Assembly: GCF_022508225.1 (NCBI RefSeq) | Contig: NZ_JAETXJ010000003.1 | Span: 79,556-119,555 of the forward strand | DNA: 40,000 bases | Direction: 5' to 3' | Origin: Desulfovibrio sp. UIB00 | GTDB lineage: Bacteria > Desulfobacterota > Desulfovibrionia > Desulfovibrionales > Desulfovibrionaceae | Shown: positions 13,782-34,352 of the stretch, in pieces | Numbering within the stretch: the first letter of the stretch is position 1 | Layout: every line of letters begins with the position of its first letter | The notes under the pieces: model-generated | Databases searched by the model: none | Told to the model about the DNA's origin: nothing | The model's input: the letters and a program-made list of their open reading frames with translations, nothing else | Translations under genes and position numbers: made by a program

Positions 13782-15539
13782 TCACCCGTGAGTTTTCATG
13801 TCGCGTATTAGCCCTTGCAGTGCAGCCGTTTGCCGGGAGAGGGCATCCACTGCCTTGCTTGCGTGATCCATAGCCTGCGCAGTTTCGGCAGAAATGGTTG
13901 CGACTTGCTCGACTGATCTGTTGATTTCTTCGCTGGTTGCCGATTGCTGCTCACTCGCAGCGGCAATTGCCTGGATTTGATCGTTAACATGCTCTACATA
14001 CTCAAGTATTTGCCGTAGTGCATCGCCAGAGCGGGCAGAGAGCGTGGTTGCTTCTTCAATAGCTGCGCCCACGTCTTCCACATTATCAATATTTTTTCTT
14101 GTGCCTTGCTGAATACCGGTGATGGCGTCGCCAACTTCACGGGTGGCTGTCATGGTTTTCTCTGCAAGTTTGCGCACTTCATCAGCAACCACGGCAAAAC
14201 CACGGCCCGCATCGCCAGCCCGGGCAGCTTCAATGGCAGCGTTGAGCGCAAGAAGGTTTGTCTGGTCGGCAATATCCGCAATAACGTTCATGATTTGCCC
14301 GATGGCTTCGGCCTGTTTGCCCAATGCTCCCATATCCTGCTTGATTGCTAATGATTTTGCATGAATGGACTTAATGTTCTCAACCGCAGTGGTGACAATC
14401 TGTACGCCCTCAATGGTCTGTTTTTGGGCGTTGTCAGAAACACCTGCTGCGAGTTGGGCATTTTTGGCGACTTCAAGCACTGTCGCATTCATTTCTTCCA
14501 TGGCGGTGGCTGTTTCGTGCACGCGGTTTGACTGTTCGTCCGCTCCACGGCTGGATTGAGTTATCTGCGTAGAAAGCTGCTCCGCAGCGCCAGAGATTAC
14601 TCCAACCACTTCTTCAAGTTGTTGAGCTGCCTGCAACATGCCTTCTGCCTTGGCTCTTTCAGCCATCAGCTTTGATTGCTGGGCTTCAGCAGTTGCCTTG
14701 CGGGCGGCTTCGGCTTGCAGTTCTGCCTCTGCCTGCCGCGTTGAGGCCTGGGTGAAACTTTCGCTGAGCTTGTCGCGCATTTCGCGCATGGCGGCAAACA
14801 GACCGCAGTTTTTACGGCTGCCGTGCAGGCTCATATCCACTTCGAGGTCGCCGTGGGCGATTTTGCGCGCCACGTCTGCGACATCGGCAGGTTCCGCACC
14901 AAGCTGCGCCATGAATGACCGGATTGTAAAAAATGCCCCAAGCGAGCCCGTGATAATTGAAATTCCGGTCAGAACCCATTGCAGCATCAGGCTTGTGGCA
15001 AGCTCGTTCTTTAACGTGCCCAAGTTGTGGCTTGCCACGCCGGTCTGTTCTTCAATAAATGGTTCCAAAGCGGTTGTGAGGGCTTCTGTGGCATTGTCGA
15101 AATCTTCCATGAGTTCGTTGCCGGCCTCTATGCCCTGGTTGATGTAAGTATCGGCCATCTTGCGGCCCAGCGCGTACATGGCGTCAAATGACGTGACCAG
15201 TGCGGCAAGTTTTTCCTGCGATTTTTTGTTGTTCTCAAGAGCGAATTTGTTTTTGAATTTCTGCGCATGCTCATGAAAGGTATCTGCGGCTTCCTGCGCC
15301 TCTTTATAGCCATCTGGGCTGTGCGTTGCGGAAACGTCAGACAGAAATTGCTGCACCTGCACTGTTTGCAGCTTCATATCCGCTGCCAGCATGGCCAAGG
15401 GCATGCTTTCATCAGCCGTTGTATCGGCAAGAAGGTCGGCCTGGCTCAGGTTGTGGCGCATAATCAAGGCGCTGAGCAGTATCAGAAAAAAAATGGAACC
15501 AAAGCCCAGCCAAAGCCGAGTCGCTACTTTCAACTGCAT
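13782..15539 (-). CDS. Methyl-accepting chemotaxis protein
   Basis: Two TM segments flank a ~170-aa sensor region. The C-terminal signalling domain carries [40 protein letters not shown]. Preferred start is ATG 15539 after GGGGGAGG. Confidence 0.9.
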
Positions 15540-17657: not shown

Positions 17658-18382
17658 AATGACTCCTCCGGAACAGTAGTGACATAACAGGGCTGATCAC
17701 AGCGCAATATGTTGACAAGACACGGTTGCAACAAATGATTTGTGTTTATCATTCAGTTACAAGTGATGGTATCAATAGTAGTGTTGCTGTAATTTTATTT
17801 TCGGAATTTATGTTACAATGTTTATATTTCATAAATATAAATATTTTTTTCACATGCAAAGATTCATGCGAAAAACAAATGTTAAAAAATATAACATTCG
17901 ATAATTTTTGCTTTAGAAATATTGTTATGACTTACTATAGTAATGTTGAGGTATTGTTCGGACAAGAGCGTGTGATATTATCAAAACTGAACTATCTTGT
18001 TTTTGACCTGATTGTTGAAACATTGATTAAGTGTATAGGATATGATGCTTTAAAAACTGCAAATAAAATCATGATTCATTTTTTATAATATTTATTGCGC
18101 AGATATCACGTAACAATTTTTTTAAGCTTACTTTTTTTTAAAATGTACAACTCGGTATAAATATGAAAAAAATTTATCCGATAAGTGAATATCATTGAGA
18201 TTATCCAGCTTGATAGACGCATATTCTATTTCAGGATAATTTCTATAGTTTTATTTCACATAAATATTGCTGCTTGTAGCTGTATTTGTATCTTAAAAAT
18301 TCATTTTTATTTGTTTGTTGGTGACAGTATTTGCAGAATATATGATTTATTGCAGATAGTTGTGCATAAAGTTAAAAAGTGT

Positions 18383-18398
18383 TGGAACAGATATTGCT
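18383..18398 (+). promoter_or_regulatory. Candidate sigma-54 (-24/-12) promoter for the Cache-GGDEF gene
   Basis: TGGAACAGATATTGCT has GG and GC at the canonical spacing of TGGCACG-N4-TTGCW, with one mismatch in the -24 box. It lies about 47 nt upstream of ATG 18445. Confidence 0.35.
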
Positions 18399-18444
18399 AA
18401 TGATCCCAGGCAGGCAAAAAAAGTAAAATCTGGCAGTTAACGAG

Positions 18445-23534: not shown

Positions 23535-23684
23535 GGCATTAACCCTGTCTGGGTGTGGCGACATTGCTAAGATTGCGCAGCGCAGGGGGCAATGCAAGTA
23601 AAATAGCTAGTAACTTAGTTGGTAGATTCCTGGTTAAAATTTATCTACTAGTTGATTTGCTGAAAATTTGACTGGAGGCATTGC

Positions 23685-23972
23685 TTGAAATTCGTACAGA
23701 ACAGCGCATTTTTGATACTGTTTTTGCTCATATCCGGCTGCGGCTTGATTATTGATATTGCATGCCTTGCGACAGGAAGACCGGGGACACAAAAACCGGA
23801 TTCTGAAAAAACAGACTTTGAAAGATCAATGGATAAAACAAATAAAGAGCAAGGCAATTGGGTACGGGACCAACAACGGAAGTTAGAAGAAGATCGACAA
23901 CGCAGCATAAGAGAGAGCAATGAAAAGATGCAGCGTTGGGCAGAAGAAGCTAAGCAAAAGCAGAAAAATTGA
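23685..23972 (+). CDS. Small putative lipoprotein with charged C-terminal tail
   Basis: The TTG start is preceded by GGAGG (23674-23678). It has a signal peptide with lipobox LLISGC. No family was recognised. Confidence 0.55.
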   Translation: MKFVQNSAFLILFLLISGCGLIIDIACLATGRPGTQKPDSEKTDFERSMDKTNKEQGNWVRDQQRKLEEDRQRSIRESNEKMQRWAEEAKQKQKN

Positions 23973-24207
23973 AGTTTACCTGAGTATTGAGTTGACCAGT
24001 ATTGGGGTGGCAAAGCCACAATTCGCGCTAGGTCGTAATCCCCGTTACATATCTGCTTGCTCTGCGGCAGAAGCGCACCGAGGAATGGGCAAAGCCTTGA
24101 GCAATGCGGCCCGCATTGGGAGATATGTTTGGAAGAATAGCGGTGTCTTTGGATTTGCGCCTTGTAGCGCCGCGCTTAAAGGAAAAATCCTGGAATGATT
24201 ATATAAG

Positions 24208-24236
24208 TTGACAGAGCCGGCGGTTCCGCGTAGATA
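24208..24236 (+). promoter_or_regulatory. Sigma-70-like promoter of tRNA-Pro copy 1
   Basis: TTGACA (24208-24213), 17 nt, then TAGATA (24231-24236), 12 nt before the tRNA 5' end. A similar arrangement sits upstream of copy 2. Confidence 0.45.
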
Positions 24237-24248
24237 CACCTTTCGCGT

Positions 24249-24325
24249 CGGGATGTAGCGCAGCCTGGGAGCGCACTTGAATGGGGTTCAAGGGGTCGAA
24301 GGTTCAAATCCTTTCATCCCGACCA
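24249..24325 (+). tRNA. tRNA-Pro (anticodon GGG)
   Basis: Hand-folded cloverleaf. Acceptor is CGGGATG/CATCCCG and D arm GCGC..GCGC. The anticodon stem CTTGA/TCAAG has loop A-T-GGG-G-T. T arm is GAAGG-TTCAAAT-CCTTT, with discriminator A and an encoded CCA. Confidence 0.9.
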
Positions 24326-24327
24326 GA
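24281..24327 (+). repeat. attL: 47-bp direct repeat (tRNA-Pro anticodon loop to CCA plus GA)
   Basis: atggggttcaaggggtcgaaggttcaaatcctttcatcccgaccaga is identical at 31965-32011. Confidence 0.85.
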
Positions 24328-24333
24328 ATTTGG

Positions 24334-24365
24334 GGGAATTCATGGAAACATGAATTCCCTTTTTT
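24334..24365 (+). terminator. tRNA terminator hairpin (island-side version)
   Basis: gggaattcatg-gaaa-catgaattccc followed by tttttt. The same sequence occurs in reverse complement at 34194-34225, and a variant at 32020-32050. Confidence 0.8.
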
Positions 24366-24384
24366 CGTTGGTGGCGAGGAGCCG

Positions 24385-24849
24385 TTATTCAAATGCAGCT
24401 CCATATATTTTTAAGCGAATCCATAACCTTTTAACAGGATTAACCTCCCACCCAAATGCTAGTTTCGGAAAATTTTGAGTAGACCCTATTGCAAAAGCAC
24501 CCACAAGCCGCTCCCCAGTACGGCATTTAATTTCGCAATGTTGATTATACTCCATATTCTCTAGTTTACCTCTCTTTTCAATGTCATATCTGTCGCATTC
24601 TGACGCGCATTCACCAATCCAAGGGATTGACTCCAATTGTCCATCCTCTTTAATAAATCCATAGTCTCGTATGGAAATAGGTCGAAAGCTTTTGCTAACG
24701 ATAAACATAGCATCTCTATCATCCATTTCAGAACGGTAGGAGCCATATTTAACTACAAATCTATCCTTCCTCTCAAACAACTTATCATAAATAACGATTA
24801 TACCGCCTATTGCAGATATAAGAATTCCAAAATCAGACAGATTTATCAT
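24385..24849 (-). CDS. Hypothetical single-TM protein (paralog of 33710..34174)
   Basis: 154 aa. N-terminal TM is FGILISAIGGIIVIY, followed by a Cys-containing ~125-aa domain (WIGECASECD...CEIKC). It differs from the second copy at 21 of 154 positions by eye, mostly conservatively. No family was recognised. Confidence 0.7.
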   Translation of the reverse strand: MINLSDFGILISAIGGIIVIYDKLFERKDRFVVKYGSYRSEMDDRDAMFIVSKSFRPISIRDYGFIKEDGQLESIPWIGECASECDRYDIEKRGKLENMEYNQHCEIKCRTGERLVGAFAIGSTQNFPKLAFGWEVNPVKRLWIRLKIYGAAFE

Positions 24850-24962
24850 AATAAAAGCCTACCTTGCAGACTTTAAAATATTGTGTATGGGTCAAATTAA
24901 TTCATGGAAATATAGATTTTATTTTTTATTAAAAACTATGCATGAAATAGTGATAGCACAAG

Positions 24963-25418
24963 TTAGTTATTGCATCTATACATTTGCCTAACTAGCACTA
25001 CAATGAAAAGTAAAAATGACCATACAGATGTGATGCATAAAAAAATTAAATATTTAAATGTTTCAGTTGTATTATAATAGGCAAGAAGTGTTGCTATATA
25101 TGTAATACACCCAATGAAAGTAATGTATAAATAATTTAATAATAATATTTTAAAATATCCCTCTTTCTTGTATAATTGTAAATGTGGAGAATCAATAGAA
25201 AATAATATTGCTATTGCAGTAGTAATAAATCCAACAATAGATATTGTTGAAGATGCTACAATTGATGAGAAGCTATCTATTTTTTGGCAGACAATAGTAA
25301 AATAACATTCAAAAAAATTAGTTTTCGTGAGAAAGAAAAAAAGCATTCCAGGAATTGTCACGTTCATACATAGTAGCACTAGTGACATCGTCAGAATTTT
25401 GTTTGATTTTTTCTTCAT
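24963..25418 (-). CDS. RexB-like four-TM membrane protein
   Basis: 151 aa with a basic N-terminus (MKKKSNK) and four hydrophobic segments. Size, topology and a central stretch (KKEGYFKILLLNYLY) resemble remembered lambda RexB (144 aa). It lies directly downstream of the RexA-like gene. The start is uncertain (25418, 25388, 25367 or 25346). Confidence 0.65.
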   Translation of the reverse strand: MKKKSNKILTMSLVLLCMNVTIPGMLFFFLTKTNFFECYFTIVCQKIDSFSSIVASSTISIVGFITTAIAILFSIDSPHLQLYKKEGYFKILLLNYLYITFIGCITYIATLLAYYNTTETFKYLIFLCITSVWSFLLFIVVLVRQMYRCNN

Positions 25419-26259
25419 TAATAAAATCTCTTACTTTATCTATAACAACGTCATTTGCAATGTCTTTCTTATTCATTGTTGCCGCAATTGATTCTTCATT
25501 CTGTGATATGCTTATAATATCACTTACAGCTCCACTTCCAACGATATAAAAATCTGTGGCGGCTTCTCCAAATTCATGCTTAGCTTTAACTACAAATTTT
25601 TTTAAATCTTCATCCTTGATAGTAGAAGCAATTGCCTGAAATGATGCATTGATATCCTTTCTCTTCTTTGGTTTAATAATTATTTCAATAGCATCGGTGT
25701 CAGTTTCAATTTTGTCTCCGAAGTATTCTTTAAGACACTGAAAAATTCCATTATTCATTCCAACTTCAAAAGTTGCCCTTCCAACAAAGGGCATCTTCAA
25801 TACTTCTGCAGTGGTAGCAGAAGATGTGAGAGGATAAACTTTGAAATTTATTCCCAGAACATCGAGATTTTTTAAAATACAATTTATTAATTGCGTGAAT
25901 TTGGTAATTTTGGGTCCGTAAAAAGTTGACCCAATGCCAAAATAATCTTTTCTTGGAAGAATATATGACGCGAAACCCAATGATTCATCAGCAGATAGCT
26001 TATCATAAATATCAGACTGAGACATTTGATTTTCATTTATAGCTTTAATAATTTCTGAACTTTTTGTCATTACAAAAAGATATACTCCATCAGAAACATA
26101 AAATATAAATAATTTTTCACCGAATTCAGTTACTAAATTCTTTTTAAATGCAGCAGGGGCATGACGATCAAAATTACGAATAAATTCTCGCAAATTAAAG
26201 GAATATTTAGATTCTGTAGAATCCAGAACTAAATAGTGTGCGAAGTAGTTAACTTTCAT
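25318..26259 (-). CDS. RexA-like protein
   Basis: 313 aa from ATG 26259 (GAGGGA upstream; the ORF track starts at TTG 26310). By-eye collinear matches to remembered lambda RexA: LSADESLGFASY/LADDESLGFPSF, FYGPKITKFTQLI/VFGPTTSDLTDFL, PFVGRATFEV/HFIGRTTVKV, IEIIIKPKKRKDI/LDIVIKPKFKRDI. Confidence 0.75.
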   Translation of the reverse strand: MKVNYFAHYLVLDSTESKYSFNLREFIRNFDRHAPAAFKKNLVTEFGEKLFIFYVSDGVYLFVMTKSSEIIKAINENQMSQSDIYDKLSADESLGFASYILPRKDYFGIGSTFYGPKITKFTQLINCILKNLDVLGINFKVYPLTSSATTAEVLKMPFVGRATFEVGMNNGIFQCLKEYFGDKIETDTDAIEIIIKPKKRKDINASFQAIASTIKDEDLKKFVVKAKHEFGEAATDFYIVGSGAVSDIISISQNEESIAATMNKKDIANDVVIDKVRDFINEEKIKQNSDDVTSATMYERDNSWNAFFLSHEN

Positions 26260-26709
26260 GCATCCCTCATTATTTATCGTTTCATAAAAAATATCAGCAA
26301 ATTTAAACAATGCAACTTATTTCGAACAAGACATATTTAACTATCTAATTTTAATATGTTATTTGGAAAAAATTAGAATGATGCTATAAGAATACGAAGT
26401 TGTTCATCTGCCACTCATGGGTATTATTAGCTTTATTTCTCCCTCCTTTCCCCAATACCCCCCTCCAATCCTTCCGCCCCCAAATCTCCCCCTAGGGTTT
26501 GCCCTGGGTCGAATTTGAGCCCTACTGCGATTTTTTTCTTGGAATGATGGTTGGGTCAGGATTTGTTAAAAAATCCCCTTAGAATCAAAATTTGGCCCAA
26601 AGTTCGATTTCATATGGTAACGGCAAGATCATGCATATATGCAAATAAAATCGCTCTATTGAATATTTTCAGATAGATATGTGAATACAATCTATTTGGA
26701 GGTATTCTG

Positions 26710-27102
26710 ATGGAATGTAATGATTGGAAATTGATTTGCTGTTACACAAGGAAACGAGCAATCGATGATGGAATCATGGTTGATGTATCAGATTTTGTTA
26801 GCGACTTTGGGTTTATTGTTCCAGTTGCAATAACAAATAACCTTTTCACACGGTATATTCAGCCAACAAATAAATTGGCTGAAGCTGGACAATCTTCAGA
26901 ATCAAGAATGATTGATTTGCTCGTTGTTATGATGATAAAATTATTTCAACGACCAAATACAGAACAACTTTCATTCAATGTTAGCTTTGACATGGAATAT
27001 GAAGAGAAGATTGAATCAAAGCTCGTTCAAATCTTAGCGGTAATCGGTCAAGGTGATGCTGGGGAACCAGTGCTGACAATAATGCTACCTGAAGACTTTT
27101 AG
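26710..27102 (+). CDS. Small acidic protein of mobile-element type (possibly DUF6573-like)
   Basis: 130 aa with GGAGG 6 nt upstream. YTRKRAIDDGIMVDVSDF...GFIVPVAIT...PVLTIMLPEDF resembles small proteins I recall from plasmid and ICE accessory regions. The family name comes from memory only. Confidence 0.55.
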   Translation: MECNDWKLICCYTRKRAIDDGIMVDVSDFVSDFGFIVPVAITNNLFTRYIQPTNKLAEAGQSSESRMIDLLVVMMIKLFQRPNTEQLSFNVSFDMEYEEKIESKLVQILAVIGQGDAGEPVLTIMLPEDF

Positions 27103-27113
27103 TTAAAAAAAAT

Positions 27114-27139
27114 GGCCGGAATTAGTCCGGTCTTTTTTT
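27114..27139 (+). terminator. Rho-independent terminator
   Basis: 7-bp stem (ggccgga/tccggtc, with one G:U) and a 5-nt loop, followed by T7. It is preceded by an A8 run, so it may act in both directions. Confidence 0.7.
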
Positions 27140-27612
27140 GTGAATTAATAACTTAGCAACTTAATATGGTATGAGGCAGTGTTCATGGTGATTGAAAAGA
27201 TGTTCAAGCGATGAAGCAACTGTATGAAGCGTGTATCAATGATCTTAAAAACTAACTGTAATAATTGACAAAATAAATCTGTCCGTTAATTTTGAGCTAC
27301 GATTTCGAATGGATTTTGCCGTTAAAATCACATCACAAGGAGTTATTGATGAGAAATGCTGTCTGTTTTGTATTAGGTATGTCTAAGATGCTTACATTAC
27401 ATCATATTCCATGAACTTTGCTTAATCAGCGGTCCTATGCCGCATGATTAGCGAACTGTCTTCTTATTATTGCAACATGATGATTTTATTATATTTGTAA
27501 AGAAAGTTATTTTATTTAAGTATGTTATTTAGTCGTAGTTTAAAAGTATTCACAAAATTATTTTAATTACGGTGAGTTATGAAACAATACAGAATTTGCG
27601 AAGGTTTTAAAC

Positions 27613-28641
27613 ATGAGCATCGTACAGAACACACCTCAAGAGAATTCTAACTTTAAAGCACTGAGTTTAGAAACACTTTTAAAACAAAGCTACAACGTTG
27701 AATATCTGATTGATCAAATTCTTCCAAAAAATGAATCACTGTTAATTGTTGGAAAATGTGGATGCGGAAAATCAACTTTGGTGATGCAGATCGCTGTAGA
27801 GCTTTGCGACCCATCACATAACTTGTTCTTAGGTCTGTTGCCAATTTCACCAAGTCCACAACCTCGCAAAGTACTCATAATCCAAGCTGAGAACCATGGT
27901 GGAGGACTTTCGAAGCATTTTACCGAAATGCTTCAAGGACGGTCCATGGCATCGTGCCAATCGATTTTGACCGGAATCTATTTCATGAGCAACAAGCTCA
28001 CAGGTAGGGCCAGCGGTGATTTGATGGCACCAGCGTTTTACGCAGAGGTTGAACGGCTTCTTGCAGCCGGGCACTACGATGTTGTTATTCTGGACCCTCT
28101 CGCGAGTTTCCATTCGAGCGAAGAATTCAATAATGAGCAGATGCGGCGCGTATTGGATAGGTTGCAAGCTCTCACTGAGAATTACCATGCAACGCTGATT
28201 GTGGTGCATCACGATGGTAAAAATCCCGCAAACTCTACTGGGGGTCGTGGTGCAAGCTCAATCGGAGATTGGGCCGCAAACGTGTGGCAGATTCGGAACA
28301 ATAAAGGAAAGTTTGAGCTTGAGAATCTTAAAGCTAGGAATTCTGCAAGGTATCCATCAGTGATTAAGCTCGAGTTGAAAAATTCCATCTTTACTGCATC
28401 ATCAGCAACATCTAATTCGTTACATGCAGACCTTGCATATGTTGTTAATGCTTTAAAAAATCTGAATGGACAAGCGAATTCAACTAGCGATTTGGTTAAT
28501 GAAACGTCAAGGTTACTTAGAAATGATGGAAAAGCATCTTCACCGAGCATTGCAAGACCATTAATTGATAAAGCTGTAAATTCTGGATTAGTTACTGAAA
28601 TTCATCCAGGAGGAAATAAGATTACGTTCAAATTGATTTAA
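27613..28641 (+). CDS. RecA-fold AAA ATPase (RepA/AAA_25-like) with C-terminal winged-helix-like tail
   Basis: 342 aa. Walker A is GKCGCGKST and Walker B VVILDPL, with a LIVVHHDGKN sensor-like block. This type is typical of replication or mobilisation ATPases of small integrative elements. Confidence 0.8.
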   Translation: MSIVQNTPQENSNFKALSLETLLKQSYNVEYLIDQILPKNESLLIVGKCGCGKSTLVMQIAVELCDPSHNLFLGLLPISPSPQPRKVLIIQAENHGGGLSKHFTEMLQGRSMASCQSILTGIYFMSNKLTGRASGDLMAPAFYAEVERLLAAGHYDVVILDPLASFHSSEEFNNEQMRRVLDRLQALTENYHATLIVVHHDGKNPANSTGGRGASSIGDWAANVWQIRNNKGKFELENLKARNSARYPSVIKLELKNSIFTASSATSNSLHADLAYVVNALKNLNGQANSTSDLVNETSRLLRNDGKASSPSIARPLIDKAVNSGLVTEIHPGGNKITFKLI

Positions 28642-28653
28642 CAATAATAAATA

Positions 28654-28707
28654 GGTCTGTATCTTTTATGAATACACACTATTAGTTAACTATAAAAGGT
28701 ACAGACC
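28654..28707 (+). terminator. Long imperfect hairpin after the ATPase gene
   Basis: ggtctgtatctttta ... tataaaaggtacagacc: arms of about 16 bp with one mismatch and a loop of about 20 nt. Confidence 0.5.
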
Positions 28708-29165
28708 GTTATTAAAGTAAATTCCAGTTATATTTAAATTTCAGGTATATTTTAAAAAAAATTCAATAAAATCAGCATGTTTTGAATATGTAAATTTTGA
28801 AATTTACAAGCTGAAAAGTTATTGTAAGCTAATAAAATATTTGAATATTTTAAATTTCAAACTGCTATATATAATAATGGAATGCAAAAACATTCCAATT
28901 ATTATTTTCTCTACACGCTCGATACTCACTGCATCACTGTACTTCATTTTCATTTCAAACACTTCATAGAGATATTTTTAGGAATACATATTAATGTGTT
29001 CAACAAAAGCATTGGTAAAACCTACTGGTTCTTTTGTTTACGGAGGTTTGTGTTGAATATTGCAATGCAATTATGGAAGCTACAATACCTAGTTAGAAAT
29101 TCAAAGCTATTAAGGAAGATTGTGATTGAAACAATAGTTACAATTTTAAAAAGCAGAATTTAACC

Positions 29166-29190
29166 AAAGAGTGTGTACACACTCTTTTTT
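29166..29190 (+). terminator. Perfect palindrome plus T-run
   Basis: aaAGAGTGTGTACACACTCTtt (18-bp perfect core at 29168-29185) runs into a T6 tract. Confidence 0.6.
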
Positions 29191-29241
29191 ATCACTTGAA
29201 TATAGATATTCTTCATAAAAATATGTCTTATGGAGAATGCT

Positions 29242-29655
29242 ATGAGTAAGAAATCACCTGATTCACGTGTTGATAAAGTTAAGAAGCAGGAATCAAAGTA
29301 TGATGCAAATGTGTTGCGGGATTTGATTCGGAACGGCAAAACCGCTTCGGAAATCATGCTGGCAATGGATATTGGTCACAAACAGATTTTGAAGCATCAC
29401 GTTTTGAAACTGATCGCTACTGACAAGGAATTCTACGAAGTTCCGGGACTGTACGATAAGAACCGCCGTAAGGCCTTCGTAAACAGCCGTGGTGAAATCC
29501 GATTAAGGATGCCCAATATCGATTTCAAGGGAATGTCTCTTGAACCAGATACCGAATTTGATGTGGTGGTGGAAGATGATAAGATCATCCTGATTCGCAT
29601 TGTAGCAGAACCGAAGCTAGATTCGTCCAAAATCCTCGCCGTGAGCGATTTGTAA
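29242..29655 (+). CDS. Putative DNA-binding regulator with AbrB/SpoVT-like C-terminal domain
   Basis: ATG 29242 is preceded by GGAGA (the ORF track starts at 29230). The C-terminal GEIRLRMPNIDFKGMSLEPDTEFDVVVEDDKIILIRI looks like a swapped-hairpin (AbrB/MazE) fold, and the N-terminus is basic. The call is tentative. Confidence 0.5.
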   Translation: MSKKSPDSRVDKVKKQESKYDANVLRDLIRNGKTASEIMLAMDIGHKQILKHHVLKLIATDKEFYEVPGLYDKNRRKAFVNSRGEIRLRMPNIDFKGMSLEPDTEFDVVVEDDKIILIRIVAEPKLDSSKILAVSDL

Positions 29656-29885
29656 TCGCAAGGAGCCACTTCAGAAAATGGGGTGGCCTTTTAATTATAA
29701 CAACGCTGATTTGTTAAAAAATGGAACGTCCGATTTGTACCAGAAACGGACATTCAAATGTTTGACGGGGTGAAATTAAATAAATTCAGCCTGTTATGTG
29801 GAGTTCCAAGGGAAACCCTATCCCTGTCCCCAAAATGAATGTCCAAATTCTTGGACTTTTCATAACGAAACGTAAATTGGAGTAC

Positions 29886-30452
29886 ATGATCATGAAGGTG
29901 CAGCCAATTACTGATCTGAAGGATATTAAGCGCATCAAGCGATTGTTGTCATCTAATCCGAGAAACTTGTTGCTATTTATAATGGGTATCAACGCAGGGT
30001 TACGAGTCCAAGATATTTTGGCATTGCGTGTGACTGATGTTGAATATGCTGTTGTTGGAGATCGTATAACTGTGATTGAAAGGAAGACAAAGAAAGAGAA
30101 TGTGCTCATCATTAACCAGGAAATTTATGATGCCGTGCAACGGTATCTGGCCTTTCATAAGCAGCGTGTTCCGAGGGAGTTCCTGTTTAAGAGCCGGAAA
30201 GGTTGGAACTACCCACTGAGCACATATGCTGTAACCCATATGGTCCAGGGCTGGTGCGATGAAATCAATCTGGCCGGCAATTACGGTGCTCATACCCTTC
30301 GCAAGACGTGGTGTTACCAGCAACGAAAGCTCTATGGCGTGTCCTGGGAGTTACTCGCGAAAAGGATGAACCATTCCAACCCCGCAGTAACTCGCCGTTA
30401 CCTTGGCATCCAAGCTGAGGAAGTGGAAGAAGTGTTGCTCAATGCTATCTAG
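29886..30452 (+). CDS. Short tyrosine recombinase (catalytic domain only, ~186-188 aa)
   Basis: GLRVQD (Arg I region), AHTLRKT (H-x-x-R), a NHSN His and RRYLG (catalytic Tyr). The start is ATG 29886 or 29892, with GGAG at 29879-29882. The ORF-track N-terminal extension is unlikely to be real. Confidence 0.75.
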   Translation: MIMKVQPITDLKDIKRIKRLLSSNPRNLLLFIMGINAGLRVQDILALRVTDVEYAVVGDRITVIERKTKKENVLIINQEIYDAVQRYLAFHKQRVPREFLFKSRKGWNYPLSTYAVTHMVQGWCDEINLAGNYGAHTLRKTWCYQQRKLYGVSWELLAKRMNHSNPAVTRRYLGIQAEEVEEVLLNAI

Positions 30453-30633
30453 CACAGCTTTAAAAAAATTTGAAAAAAAATTGTGTATGATGAAGTCGCA
30501 CAACTGTAATGAGCTGTATGAAAAAGTGTCTGAGCAACTTAAAAAACATGTCGTTTGCTTAAAATAATAATGACGTGCTATCGGATATCAGCTCTACCAA
30601 AATAATGGTAGCAACTTCAACAGGAGATAATTG

Positions 30634-31737
30634 ATGAGCGTACACCCACATAAAGATGGGCGCTGGATTTGCACGTATTATCCAAACGGCATACGGAAGG
30701 ACAAGTCGTTTGGGCGCGGTCCTGATGCAAAATCTTCAGCAGACTTGTTTGATTTAGAAATGAAAAAACTTTACTCAAATAAAGGAACTCATTGCGAATC
30801 AGTCGTACCAGTACAAATCTCTGAGCCAATGAAACCTTTAAGCCAGATGACCTTTGGAGGACTGGTAGAAGAGTATCTTCAGCATAGTCGGGCGAATGGT
30901 TCCACAGAAAACCATTTAGACAGCATTTTGAGTGTCGCAAATGCGCTCTTTTACCCGGCATTTGGAAAGGAAAAGCTGATTGTAAGCTTCGATTATGGAC
31001 ACGACATCTTGCCGTTCATGACCAAGATCGCAAACGAGCCTTCTCAAAGGGGGAGTTGTCGTGCGACAGTAACCGTGAACAAGTACGGACACTTTCTCGT
31101 AGCTCTGTTCAACTACGCAATAGCGCGTGACTACATTTCAAACAACCCTATGCGCCTTTGGAAAAAAGCAAAGGTCAAAAAAAAGGACATACAGCTTACA
31201 ATTGAAGATGCACAAAAGATTATGCATTGTGCTGCGCCTCACTTGAGATGGGCAATGGAAGTATGCTTTAATTTGGGGACACGCTCTGGTGAATCAGAAT
31301 TACTTTCATTGAAATGGTCAGACGTAGACTACGAGAAAAAGATGGTCCATGTCTACGGCAGAAAGACAAAAACGGACCGGTTCATACCAGTCAGTGATGA
31401 GTTTCTTAAGAAGCTTGCAGAAAAGCAGGCTGTCGCCCGTACAGATCACATTGTTGAATTTCGAGGCAGACCAATTCGAATGATTCGTAATGCGTTCCGT
31501 CAGGCTGTGAGAAAAGCTCAAATTACATATCCTGTTCGCATGTATGATTTGAGACACCTTTTTGCGACCTCTCTCATCAGTGCAGGGGCCTCAATTGGGT
31601 CAGTTTCGAAGCTGATGGGTCATGCTCGAATCTCAACAACGGTCAATGTCTACTACCAGGTCAAGCAGGAGGAGCTGGAGCGCGCGATGAGCATTTTACC
31701 CAAGCTCGAAGTGAACGATGCTAAGACGGGCTCTTGA
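30634..31737 (+). CDS. int: Tyrosine-type site-specific integrase
   Basis: 367 aa with AGGAGA 6 nt upstream of ATG 30634. It has an N-terminal SAM/arm-like region, TRSGE (Arg I), YDLRHLFAT (H-x-x-R), GHARISTT and VYYQ (Tyr). It lies about 230 bp from attR. Confidence 0.9.
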   Translation: MSVHPHKDGRWICTYYPNGIRKDKSFGRGPDAKSSADLFDLEMKKLYSNKGTHCESVVPVQISEPMKPLSQMTFGGLVEEYLQHSRANGSTENHLDSILSVANALFYPAFGKEKLIVSFDYGHDILPFMTKIANEPSQRGSCRATVTVNKYGHFLVALFNYAIARDYISNNPMRLWKKAKVKKKDIQLTIEDAQKIMHCAAPHLRWAMEVCFNLGTRSGESELLSLKWSDVDYEKKMVHVYGRKTKTDRFIPVSDEFLKKLAEKQAVARTDHIVEFRGRPIRMIRNAFRQAVRKAQITYPVRMYDLRHLFATSLISAGASIGSVSKLMGHARISTTVNVYYQVKQEELERAMSILPKLEVNDAKTGS

Positions 31738-31755
31738 GGGCCAAAAACAACCAAC

Positions 31756-31788
31756 CAGGATAGCGAATAGTTCGTTGTCCTGTTTTTT
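31756..31788 (+). terminator. Rho-independent terminator of int
   Basis: 12-bp stem (31756-31767 / 31771-31782, two G:U pairs) with a 3-nt loop, followed by T6 (31783-31788). Confidence 0.75.
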
Positions 31789-31847
31789 GCTGATTAAAAA
31801 ACCATCAGTGGAAAAAATATTACTGTATAACAATGTTACGACAAAGC

Positions 31848-31897
31848 AAAACGCCAAAAACATGTTGGCGTATAATTGGCGTATAATTGGCGTTTAA
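31848..31897 (+). repeat. Tandem 11-bp repeats TTGGCGTATAA x2 plus TTGGCGTTTAA, with an upstream inverted copy
   Basis: Copies at 31865-31875, 31876-31886 and 31887-31897. The inverted aaaacgccaa lies at 31848-31857. The array sits between int and attR. Confidence 0.7.
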
Positions 31898-31964
31898 TAT
31901 TAAATATGAACTGTTAATATATTAATAATAACCAATGTAATATTAGTATATAAGATTATCTGTG

Positions 31965-32011
31965 ATGGGGTTCAAGGGGTCGAAGGTTCAAATCCTTTCA
32001 TCCCGACCAGA
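31965..32011 (+). repeat. attR: displaced 3' part of tRNA-Pro (47-bp direct repeat)
   Basis: Identical to 24281-24327. There is no tRNA 5' half upstream, only AT-rich island DNA. Confidence 0.85.
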
Positions 32012-32019
32012 GATTTAAA

Positions 32020-32050
32020 GGGAATTCATGGAAACATGAATTCCCTTTTC
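32020..32050 (+). terminator. Host-side version of the tRNA terminator hairpin
   Basis: gggaattcatg-gaaa-catgaattccc followed by ttttctc. The spacer to CCA differs from the copy at 24328-24333. Confidence 0.6.
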
Positions 32051-32249: not shown

Positions 32250-32930
32250 ATGTTTAAGCGTCTCATGCTTGCATTTGTTCTGTCCCTGGCACTCGCAGCT
32301 CCTGCGGCTGCGGAAAACACCGGCGTTTATGGCGGCTTAAAATTTATTGATTCCATTCAAAGCACTGGCCCGTTCTCTTTGAGCGGGGATGTGAAGGGGC
32401 TTGGCGTTGGTCAGTATTCGCAAAACACCGTTGGGGGCGGTATTTTTGTGGGGTACGACTTTTACCCGCATTTTCAGGTGCCCATGCGCACAGAACTGGA
32501 ATATGCCATACGCAGCAATATGACCAAGACCTGGGATCAGAAAGTAAATGGCGGCACGGCATCGTTCAAGGGCGAGTGGGGCGTGCAAACTCTGTTTGCC
32601 AACGCATATTGGGACTTCCACAACTCCACGGCCTTTACTCCTTACCTCGGCGGCGGCCTCGGCATGGGATTCATCAAGACCAAGTACACTGCGGATGTTG
32701 ACGGCGATGGGGATTCCGGCAGCCTGACGCAGTATGATACCGTTTTTGCATGGAATCTCGGCGCGGGCTGTTCCTATGCCTTTACGGAAAACATCTCGGC
32801 AGATCTGGCCTACCGCTTTGTGGGGCTGGGCTATACCGACATCAGCAAGCGCGTTGACGACAACAAGGTTTCCATCGGCAATACTCCGTATGCCAATGAA
32901 TTCAGCCTTGGCCTGCGTTTTACGTTCTAG
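32250..32930 (+). CDS. Outer-membrane beta-barrel protein (OmpW/Opa-like small porin family)
   Basis: ATG 32250 follows AAGGAGGG. It has a signal peptide ending LALAAPAAA, alternating beta-strand pattern and a C-terminal LGLRFTF motif. Confidence 0.8.
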   Translation: MFKRLMLAFVLSLALAAPAAAENTGVYGGLKFIDSIQSTGPFSLSGDVKGLGVGQYSQNTVGGGIFVGYDFYPHFQVPMRTELEYAIRSNMTKTWDQKVNGGTASFKGEWGVQTLFANAYWDFHNSTAFTPYLGGGLGMGFIKTKYTADVDGDGDSGSLTQYDTVFAWNLGAGCSYAFTENISADLAYRFVGLGYTDISKRVDDNKVSIGNTPYANEFSLGLRFTF

Positions 32931-32964: not shown

Positions 32965-32993
32965 GGGCCGGGGATTTCTCCGGCCCTTTTTTT
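32965..32993 (+). terminator. Rho-independent terminator
   Basis: gggccgg-ggatttct-ccggccc followed by T7. Confidence 0.85.
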
Positions 32994-33094
32994 ATGTGTT
33001 GTTGCCGCAATAACCGCGCTTGTCTTCGGTTGACCACACCGATGGATAAAAATAATATAAAGTATCTTGTCGCAACCCTGTTACTGGAGATGTT

Positions 33095-33559
33095 ATGGAC
33101 CTGAAGAAAGGACAAAGCATAATTGATGTCTTTGATGCGCTGTTACAGTCTACAGATCCAGCCCTCGCGCATGTGCGGGTAGCGCCAGACGCATGGACGC
33201 TTACGGAAATTGTCGGCCATCTTGTGGATTCTGCTGCCAACAACCATCAGCGGTTTGCCCGCTTGATATCGGGCAACCTTGAACAGTTTCCCCCATATGA
33301 CGCGGAAATATTTGTGACTGTTCAGCAGTATGACGGCTGTGATTTTGCAGAAATGGCAAAGTTCTGGCGGCAATATAACTGGATGCTCATGCACATAATG
33401 CGGGCAATACCAGCCACTGCCCTTGAGAATATGTGGCAGCGCCCGGATGGGGCAAAGTCGCTACGGACTCTTGTTGAAGGCTATTTTGAGCATATAGAGA
33501 TGCACGCAGACCAGTATCGCGAGCGCATGCAGATGGTAACGACTCATATTTTTGGTTAG
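33095..33559 (+). CDS. DinB-superfamily (DinB_2-like) metal-dependent protein
   Basis: 154 aa with WTLTEIVGHLVDSAANNHQR and a C-terminal YFEHIEMHADQ His pattern. Confidence 0.7.
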   Translation: MDLKKGQSIIDVFDALLQSTDPALAHVRVAPDAWTLTEIVGHLVDSAANNHQRFARLISGNLEQFPPYDAEIFVTVQQYDGCDFAEMAKFWRQYNWMLMHIMRAIPATALENMWQRPDGAKSLRTLVEGYFEHIEMHADQYRERMQMVTTHIFG

Positions 33560-33709
33560 AAGCAGGAATTAGCGGTAAAATATCAAATTTTGCATCTGGT
33601 TCTAAAATTTAATAAAGTTCATGAAGGCATGAAGTTCATTACAATCGCAGACAGGAATGAACTGAGTTGAATATTCAAAAGCTCACTATTTTCCTTGCAG
33701 GTATTACCT

Positions 33710-34174
33710 ATGATGAATCTGTCGGATTTTGGAATTCTTATTTCTGCTATAGGTGGTGTAATTGTTATATATGAAAAAGTTTTTGAAAAACGAGACAAAT
33801 TTATCATTAAGTTTGATTCTTATCATCCAGAAATGGATGATAGAGATGCAATGTTTATAGTTAGTAAAAGCTTTCGACCTATCTCAATAAGAAACTATGG
33901 CTTTATAAAAGAGGATGGACAGTTGGAGTCAATCCCTTGGATTGGTGAATGCGCGTCAGAATGCGACAACTATGATATTGAAAGAAGAGGCACATTAGAG
34001 AATATGGAGTATAATCAAATTTGCGAAATTAAATGCCGCATAGCGGGGCGGCTTGTAGGTGCTTTTGCAATAGGATCTACTCAGAATTTTCCGAAACTAG
34101 CATTTGGGTGGGAGGTTAATCCTGTTAAAAGGTTATGGATTCGCTTAAAAATATATGGAGCTGCATTTGAATAA
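33710..34174 (+). CDS. Hypothetical single-TM protein (paralog of 24385..24849)
   Basis: 154 aa from ATG 33710, in locally AT-rich DNA. The C-terminal 42 aa are identical to the other copy. It converges on tRNA-Pro copy 2. Confidence 0.7.
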   Translation: MMNLSDFGILISAIGGVIVIYEKVFEKRDKFIIKFDSYHPEMDDRDAMFIVSKSFRPISIRNYGFIKEDGQLESIPWIGECASECDNYDIERRGTLENMEYNQICEIKCRIAGRLVGAFAIGSTQNFPKLAFGWEVNPVKRLWIRLKIYGAAFE

Positions 34175-34193
34175 CGGCTCCTCGCCACCAACG

Positions 34194-34225
34194 AAAAAAG
34201 GGAATTCATGTTTCCATGAATTCCC
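34194..34225 (-). terminator. tRNA terminator hairpin (copy 2)
   Basis: Reverse complement of 24334-24365, identical. Confidence 0.8.
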
Positions 34226-34233
34226 CCAAATTC

Positions 34234-34310
34234 TGGTCGGGATGAAAGGATTTGAACCTTCGACCCCTTGAACCCCATTCAAGTGCGCTCCCAGGCTGCG
34301 CTACATCCCG
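34234..34310 (-). tRNA. tRNA-Pro (anticodon GGG), second identical copy
   Basis: Reverse complement is identical to 24249-24325. Confidence 0.9.
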
Positions 34311-34322
34311 ACGCGAAAAGAG

Positions 34323-34352
34323 TAACTACGCGGAACAGCACGGCCTGTCAAC
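34323..34352 (-). promoter_or_regulatory. Sigma-70-like promoter of tRNA-Pro copy 2
   Basis: On the minus strand: TTGACA (34352-34347), 18 nt, then TAGTTA (34328-34323). It is partly conserved with the promoter of copy 1. Confidence 0.4.

Follow-up and report, generated by a model that had tools for sequence, protein, structure and literature searches.

A 40,000-nucleotide (nt) stretch of the Desulfovibrio sp. UIB00 genome (contig NZ_JAETXJ010000003.1, positions 79,556 to 119,555; here called the window) contains, at window positions 24328-31964, a segment of foreign composition inserted into a tRNA-Pro(GGG) gene. This segment is most probably an integrative genomic island belonging to a Desulfovibrionaceae-specific family. 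The family is apparently undescribed so far, and literature searches returned no description of such Desulfovibrionaceae elements. An initial annotation of the same DNA had proposed that an integrase inserted the segment into the 3' part of the tRNA gene. That central claim is supported here by an empty site in a related genome, by an island at the same locus in Desulfovibrio desulfuricans SFAD67, and by a related island in another species. The data also imply that the entire segment between two identical, convergent tRNA genes has been inverted between genomes.

The human gut commonly harbors sulfate-reducing Desulfovibrio, whose mobile elements and phage defenses have been little charted. 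In this study, we examine the boundaries of the island, its genes, its relatives, and the ways in which it might move. Coordinates refer to the window, with the strand given in brackets.

The integration target is tRNA-Pro(GGG) copy B, which lies on the side of a DUF488 gene (24249-24325, +; ARAGORN; Rfam tRNA, 59.6 bits). A 47-nt core reaching from 2 nt 5' of the anticodon to the CCA plus GA of this gene forms attL (24281-24327, +), and is repeated exactly and directly as attR (31965-32011, +). The attR copy is a displaced tRNA 3' fragment; ARAGORN and sequence comparison found no tRNA 5' half upstream of it. Either half of the core occurs 3 times in the window, where 100 shuffles gave an expectation of 0. 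The island has a guanine plus cytosine (GC) content of 36.8%, compared to 51.7% for the 24 kb of left flank and 59.7% for the right flank, and within the island the cargo part (31.4%) and the backbone (38.9%) differ. Thus, the perfect 47-bp direct repeat in tRNA-Pro(GGG) and the missing 5' half at its second copy are as the initial annotation had described them. Its drop in composition, from 60-68% to 20-35% GC, is real but was overstated.

Integration left the island's own tRNA 3' part and terminator in place of those of the host, and displaced the host terminator together with a porin gene. The island-borne hairpin that serves the restored tRNA (24332-24361, +) has a spacer unlike that of the host version, which lies after attR (32017-32048, +). 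We take the attR-side terminator to be the host's own because the same type follows the tRNA at an empty site in a related Desulfovibrio, L010, and also follows attR of a different island, L023. The two terminator versions had been distinguished beforehand, and both relatives bear the distinction out. The displaced gene encodes an outer-membrane beta-barrel protein (32250-32930, +; Pfam OMP_b-brl, 1e-16). In L010, whose flanks are approximately 82% identical to the window, copy B leads directly to a host-type terminator and the porin gene with no island between them, and one high-scoring segment pair spans the reconstructed junction, colinear with that of the porin. This is the empty site that had been suggested as a test of the insertion. 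The porin divergence in L010 matches that of the flanks (82%), and the porin is therefore a host gene.

Relatives of the locus were found with the neighboring amylase-like gene, and comprise SFAD67 (L001) and several Desulfovibrio metagenome-assembled genomes. SFAD67 carries the same backbone, from 26460 to attR, at 94.7-99.3% identity and bounded by the same repeat, with a 445-amino acid (aa) gene in place of the three cargo genes of the window, ORF154, rexB and rexA. The flanks of the two genomes are 89.5% and 94.5% identical, and the porin genes 98.2%. A decayed island occupies the locus in L007, where an attR with 2 mismatches, approximately 300 bp of right arm and one unrelated gene remain, without an integrase. 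The arrangement in the window resembles the tRNA and tmRNA islands cataloged by Islander (PMC4383910) in that an intact tRNA and a displaced 3' fragment lie at opposite ends, a tyrosine integrase is encoded at one end, the tRNA is restored and the composition is foreign, and an unoccupied site is present in a relative. It departs from them in its target, which has an identical, convergent partner tRNA gene, and in that the backbone has a second recombinase consisting of the catalytic domain only and a 141-aa protein of a narrow family.

The gene calls support the mobile-element gene set of the initial annotation, with an integrase beside attR and accessory genes at the attL end. The tyrosine integrase (30631-31737, +; Pfam, 1e-24; PHROG 1, 1.3e-54) has 200 relatives, and all of the named ones are from Desulfovibrionaceae. 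Approximately 70 nt before the core lie three tandem 11-bp repeats, TTGGCGTATAA (31865-31897, +), candidate arm-type integrase sites that are kept in L023 and in another related element, L024; a related motif, ACGCCAAA, is repeated in L036-type elements. The predicted attP would read ...AGATTATCTGTG followed by the 47-nt core and ATTTGGGGGAATTC..., and the predicted restored attB would join the tRNA 5' half to the core and GATTTAAAGGGAATTC....

The second, short recombinase that had been noted is a tyrosine recombinase of 186 aa, with its start set from homologues (29892-30452, +; Pfam Phage_integrase, 1e-18; PHROG 216, 1.1e-42). Inspection of the sequence shows that the catalytic residues R, K, HxxR, H and Y are all present. 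As a candidate FimB/FimE-type invertase it was rejected, scoring 26 bits against a cut-off of 221 with NCBIfam PRK09870, and no convincing short inverted repeats bracketing a switch segment for it were found in the window. Upstream of it is the gene for the 141-aa protein (29230-29655, +), whose family of 57 clusters, all at least 57% identical, has no Pfam domain. An AlphaFold2 (AF2) model gives three helices and C-terminal strands at a predicted local distance difference test (pLDDT) score of 69, and the top Foldseek matches are VapB, MazE and AbrB at E ~1. These matches lend weak support to the earlier designation of an AbrB-like regulator; the protein is a putative DNA-binding regulator or excision factor.

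Between this gene and the helicase gene is a conserved open reading frame (ORF) of 36 aa, LNIAMQLWKLQYLVRNSKLLRKIVIETIVTILKSRI (29053-29163, +), which is preceded by GGAGG as ribosome-binding site and followed by a terminator. Its alignment across five divergent elements contains synonymous changes, and it is also called as a gene in L023. It could encode a small regulator or a toxin-like peptide. The helicase gene itself (27613-28641, +) encodes a RepA-like ATPase of hexameric-helicase type without a primase domain (AAA_25, 2.6e-31; RSF1010 RepA, 1g8y, 5.7e-8), as the annotation of a RepA/AAA-type ATPase had implied. A truncated primase-helicase was considered and rejected, as the 620-aa Prim-Pol+AAA_25 protein of L032 gave no tblastn match in the 510-bp gap upstream of the gene. 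A search for iterons or an origin found no convincing repeat families, just a 17-bp unit present 2.1 times at 28718-28752. A 23-nt inverted repeat (27474-27496 / 28759-28781, 87% complementary) flanks the helicase gene, the module that is swapped among family members, and may be a product of chance in such AT-rich DNA.

The boundary between cargo and backbone is marked by a conserved non-coding region of approximately 250 bp (26440-26709, +), which is conserved in 8 family members and kept among elements with differing integrases. Within it, 26505-26516 and 26588-26599 form the stem of a 12-bp inverted repeat, in which one change is compensatory. The cargo breakpoints, at 26460 in the comparison with L001 and at 26449 in that with L010, coincide in these two independent comparisons. 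The motif ATAGATAT recurs upstream of the DUF6573 gene, the 36-aa ORF and the 141-aa gene. The DUF6573 protein (26710-27102, +; Pfam, 5.9e-22) has homologues in none of 50,697 phage genomes and in 269 plasmids, 199 of which are conjugative or mobilizable; in one plasmid, the gene lies amid small genes adjoining tra genes. A single-sequence AF2 model of the protein was unusable (pLDDT 40.6), and a literature search on DUF6573 returned no paper. As for non-coding RNA, Rfam matches just two tRNAs in the window.

The cargo slot extends from attL to the non-coding boundary at ~26450 and has 31% GC. The exclusion module that had been recognized there, without a more precise identity, can now be named as RexA and RexB. 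A 313-aa RexA homologue (25318-26259, -; Pfam RexA, 1.1e-52; PADLOC RexA, 9.2e-54; lambda RexA 8TWQ, 3.5e-21) is followed directly downstream by the gene for a RexB-like polytopic membrane protein with four hydrophobic segments and an uncertain start codon (24963-25418, -; PADLOC RexB, 4e-6). For lambda, the prevailing view is that RexA detects the infection and switches on the RexB channel, whose activity aborts it (PMC12894663). By analogy, the RexA of the island would sense phage infection and activate the membrane protein RexB, and the infection would be aborted. The pair resembles lambda RexAB and the RexAB systems of prophages (PMC12894663; PDB 8TWQ) in that a RexA homologue precedes a four-segment membrane protein matching RexB. 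In contrast to the lambda system, which belongs to a prophage immunity region, it lies in a non-phage island; its RexA has 313 aa rather than 279 aa, and an extra gene, ORF154, lies alongside. ORF154 (24385-24849, -) encodes a presumably membrane-anchored protein with an N-terminal hydrophobic segment and 65 representative relatives of ~160 aa. It has no match in Pfam, PHROG, PADLOC, NCBIfam or the PDB, even with a 30-member profile.

The island has relatives at other loci, and the nearest relatives of its helicase are few. One of these lies in an island of another species, L023, which is inserted in tRNA-Pro(GGG) beside the host gene also seen here and has a 46-nt repeat of the same core at its ends. 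It contains in order a helicase (59% identical), the 36-aa ORF, a 137-aa protein, a 186-aa recombinase and an integrase (67%), and its cargo is a flagellin. In versions from metagenomes, a BglII-like restriction-modification system is present. The flagellin genes seen as attL-end cargo in L023 (6278-8305), L024 (823-2193) and L037 (1-1667) are full-length (456-676 aa); for an integrative island of small size, such cargo is unusual. More broadly, the 141-aa protein, short recombinase and integrase occur together at more than 20 further loci, with DUF6573 upstream in many. Other family members retain the integrase and short recombinase, together with DUF6573 and the 137-141-aa protein, and swap the replication gene, the variants being Prim-Pol+AAA_25, an 824-aa Prim-Pol protein, and D5_N/DUF5906 plus Prim-Pol+AAA. 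The swapped cargo includes Sel1/TPR and DndE/DUF87-like genes. Separately, three related elements of ~20-24 kb (L044, L045 and L050) lie in tandem on contig Ga0268356_11002 (~158-223 kb), and each closes with the 141-aa gene, followed by the short recombinase and integrase genes and, after a series of ACGCCAAA-type arm repeats, part of another tRNA.

In one group of relatives, identity to the window reaches 92-99% for the short recombinase and 79-90% for the 141-aa protein, whereas it is just 45% for the integrase, and attR there derives from a different tRNA. These two conserved proteins form a module that stays the same while integrase and tRNA differ, and that is therefore independent of att specificity. 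This gives a hint, from sequence comparison, that the module may act at an internal site or have a general regulatory role.

The target tRNA gene is one of two. The initial annotation overlooked a second complete tRNA-Pro(GGG) gene, copy A, on the amylase side and convergent with copy B (34234-34310, -; ARAGORN), as well as the 644-bp inverted repeat, of mosaic identity, that includes both (left arm 24207-24850, right arm 33709-34352). Each arm of the repeat takes in ~40 nt of promoter region before the tRNA and, beyond the tRNA, its terminator and a 154-aa gene, which is ORF154 in the island and, beside copy A, its paralogue ORF159 (33710-34174, +; 35% GC; identified by sequence comparison). 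Both genes are intact and 86% identical at the amino acid level. With up to 3 mismatches allowed, the window contained no second attR near copy A that might account for the ORF159 fragment. DNA identity of the repeat is 100% over 24249-24474 and 84% over the other 368 nt. Given the divergence of this remainder, an identical block extending so far past the tRNA has P ~5e-12, which points to a recent gene conversion or crossover.

The convergent pair, with copy A by the amylase-like gene and copy B by the DUF488 gene, is kept in L001/L006, L007, L010, L013 and L014. It is conserved across species, and the 1.8-10.2 kb between the copies is of unrelated content, forming a hypervariable segment. 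The gene order in SFAD67 is amylase (+), tRNA A (+), island (+), attR, porin (+), further genes, tRNA B (-) and DUF488. In the window it is DUF488 (-), tRNA B (+), island (+), attR, porin (+), DinB, ORF159, tRNA A (-) and amylase (-). The entire inter-tRNA segment is thus inverted between the two genomes, with end points that fall inside the ~125 bp of tRNA plus terminator. The block of island and porin is 97-100% identical between them, above the flanks on either side. These observations fit a block that homologous recombination at the inverted tRNA copies exchanged or flipped; recombination of the inverted cores by the integrase may be an alternative route. Two weaker observations hint at recurrent flips. 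The terminator types after tRNA A and tRNA B are swapped between two species (L013, 12044-12239 / 13936-14100, compared to L014), which suggests that the inter-tRNA segment has been flipped repeatedly, even without an island. In addition, there are metagenome contigs with DinB-ORF155 beside a tRNA whose flank fits the B side slightly better.

Other variation was seen at and near this locus. The slot from the porin to the other tRNA holds DinB and ORF159 in the window (32993-34190), a 304-aa gene and a DndB/DpdB-like gene in L002 (1191-3114), and a 164-aa gene and an IS3 element in L001 (10962-12594). Window positions 23632-24096, from the DUF488 gene to tRNA copy B, have no SFAD67 counterpart and include a 95-aa ORF (23685-23972) with a lipoprotein-signal-like N-terminus (LLISGC). 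Farther away, a 790-bp intergenic region of ~29-35% GC (17658-18444) separates two large, divergently transcribed genes whose SFAD67 counterparts have MCPsignal (chemoreceptor) and dCache_1/GGDEF domains; it is also present in SFAD67 and hence is not an insertion.

For the island itself, the following sequence of events is proposed. The integrase would recombine attP, at its 47-nt core, with the segment of tRNA-Pro from the anticodon loop to the 3' end. Excision would involve the integrase and the adjacent conserved module, that is, the 141-aa protein, the 186-aa recombinase or both. The excised circle would then be amplified with help of the RepA-like helicase, and a helper, either a phage or a conjugative element, would move the island. 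Genes for capsids, packaging, lysis, relaxases or type IV secretion were found neither in the island nor in the relatives examined, and the Pfam and PHROG scans agree with the initial statement that structural genes are absent. With no transfer, packaging or capsid genes of its own, the island must depend on a helper.

Several observations weigh against this picture of a mobile island. No excisionase or AlpA-like gene was recognized among the ORFs, small ORFs included. The predicted attP junction had 0 matches in JGI metagenomes, so that an excised or circular form was not observed there. In L024, a Logan contig of 8327 bp, the same 30 nt of the core stand at both ends and make a circular path at k=31, and its sister contig L025 breaks within the core at both ends; the path reflects either a circular form or repeat collapse in the assembly. 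There is no partner primase and there are no clear iterons, so that autonomous replication is no more than a possibility. Islands of this kind decay in place, as in L007, and the copy in the window could also be immobile despite its perfect repeats. The inversion may have preceded or followed integration. Finally, the function of RexAB is one that homology suggests.

The nature of the helper distinguishes two readings of the island, each possible and each doubtful. In the first, the island would be a phage satellite of PICI, P4 or PICMI type, with a helper phage that induces its excision and replication and helper capsids that package it, perhaps as concatemers in the manner of the minimalist PICMIs. 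Its small size and its combination of integrase, replication gene, small regulator and defense cargo without structural genes are in keeping with this, and larger relatives carry satellite-type Prim-Pol and D5_N/DUF5906 primase-helicase modules. PICMIs show that a satellite may lack capsid-remodeling genes (PMC10803314), and P4-like satellites have defense hotspots (10.1101/2021.01.21.427644; PMC13586616). However, no AlpA, Psu/Delta/Sid, TerS, Ppi or primase was detected in the island, and no helper phage is known. Neither the helicase nor the integrase has a close relative in IMG/VR, phage genomes give just distant helicase matches, and a viral origin was rejected on these grounds. The distribution of DUF6573, absent from the phage genomes and present in the plasmids, likewise speaks against a satellite.

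Like P4-like satellites, the island is integrative and small, and combines a backbone that is conserved with an anti-phage slot that varies (10.1101/2021.01.21.427644; PMC13586616; PMC10085698). Unlike them, it lacks Psu, Delta, Sid, AlpA and epsilon, and its helicase is RepA-like, not the P4 alpha primase-helicase. When the defining features of P4-like elements (PMC10085698) were sought, no ORF matched Psu/Delta/Sid or AlpA/HTH_17, and the AAA_25 helicase has no primase domain. Furthermore, 93% of surveyed P4-like elements are in Enterobacteriaceae (10.1101/2021.01.21.427644; PMC13586616; PMC10085698), whereas the present host is Desulfovibrio. The island shares with the PICMIs of Vibrionaceae (PMC10803314) the scale of 5-8 kb, the small number of genes, an integrase and a replication gene, the absence of capsid-remodeling genes and the large non-coding regions. 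It differs from them in having no AlpA, no DUF3987/DUF5906 primase and no known helper, and in targeting tRNA-Pro rather than fis; of the PICMI set of int, AlpA and DUF3987/DUF5906 primase at fis, int alone is present. With respect to PICIs, the integrase is present and the replication function is represented by the helicase alone, where relatives have Prim-Pol+AAA_25 or D5_N/DUF5906. Neither packaging and interference genes (TerS, Ppi, Rpp) nor an AlpA/Stl regulator was detected in the island.

In the second reading, which we hold just as tentatively, the island would be an integrative mobilizable element, and the relaxase and type IV secretion system of a conjugative element would act on an oriT-like site, possibly the non-coding region at 26440-26709. 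That region does have a conserved inverted repeat. The restriction of DUF6573 homologues to plasmids in the comparison with phages, with 199 of 269 plasmids conjugative or mobilizable, also fits, and the helicase is nearest to RepA of the mobilizable IncQ plasmids. It shares with RSF1010 (IncQ) RepA (PDB 1g8y) an AAA_25 / RecA-type core, at an E-value of 5.7e-8. In contrast to RSF1010 RepA, to which it is ~25% identical, it has ~100 extra C-terminal residues and no RepB'-type primase, RepC-type initiator or clear iterons nearby; of an IncQ-type replicon, the RepA-like protein alone was found, with no primase, initiator or convincing iterons. Opposing mobilization, no relaxase, coupling protein or recognizable oriT was found in the island, and no conjugative element was seen nearby. 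For the 12-bp inverted repeat, a role as promoter/operator, as origin or as site of recombination is just as likely.

It is unlikely that the segment is a fixed defense island that is no longer mobile, an old insertion kept for RexAB whose differences between strains arose by homologous recombination at the tRNA pair. Integrase-less remnants at the same locus in L007 and L010 are consistent with such a history, and the whole inter-tRNA block, with the porin (98.2%) included, is closer to SFAD67 than the flanks are, which fits block exchange. Nevertheless, the 47-nt repeats are perfect, all backbone ORFs and the arm repeats are intact, and a family with the same core occurs in different species with many cargo types.

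A further proposal, which we regard as quite improbable, is that the 141-aa protein, the 186-aa recombinase and the non-coding inverted-repeat region define a new helper-dependent family, in which the recombinase works internally and not at att. It would exchange cargo at the ~26450 boundary, or resolve or flip element DNA. Such an internal site would explain why the module is 85-99% identical while integrases (45%), replication genes and cargo are swapped, and would also explain the coinciding cargo breakpoints in independent genomes. Least credible of all is that the repeat arose when host DNA was duplicated locally, and not by integration: the tRNA-Pro region is indeed already duplicated here as an inverted copy, but the repeat starts in the anticodon loop, stops just past the CCA and encloses an integrase with low-GC DNA, and the exact unoccupied site in L010 contradicts the idea.

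As an integrative island, the element is fairly ordinary in kind and does not overturn current views. It is well delimited, at 7.7 kb and with a predicted attP and attB, and it places a RexAB-type system outside a prophage. The cargo slot of the family, which so far has yielded RexAB, restriction-modification, flagellins and several unknowns, can be mined for new defense or surface genes. The most noteworthy features are the short-recombinase module, which is conserved, and the pair of convergent tRNA genes, between which the content is hypervariable and can be inverted. Two identical convergent tRNA genes constitute both a natural double integration hotspot and a substrate for inversion, which matters for the assembly and comparison of these Desulfovibrio genomes.

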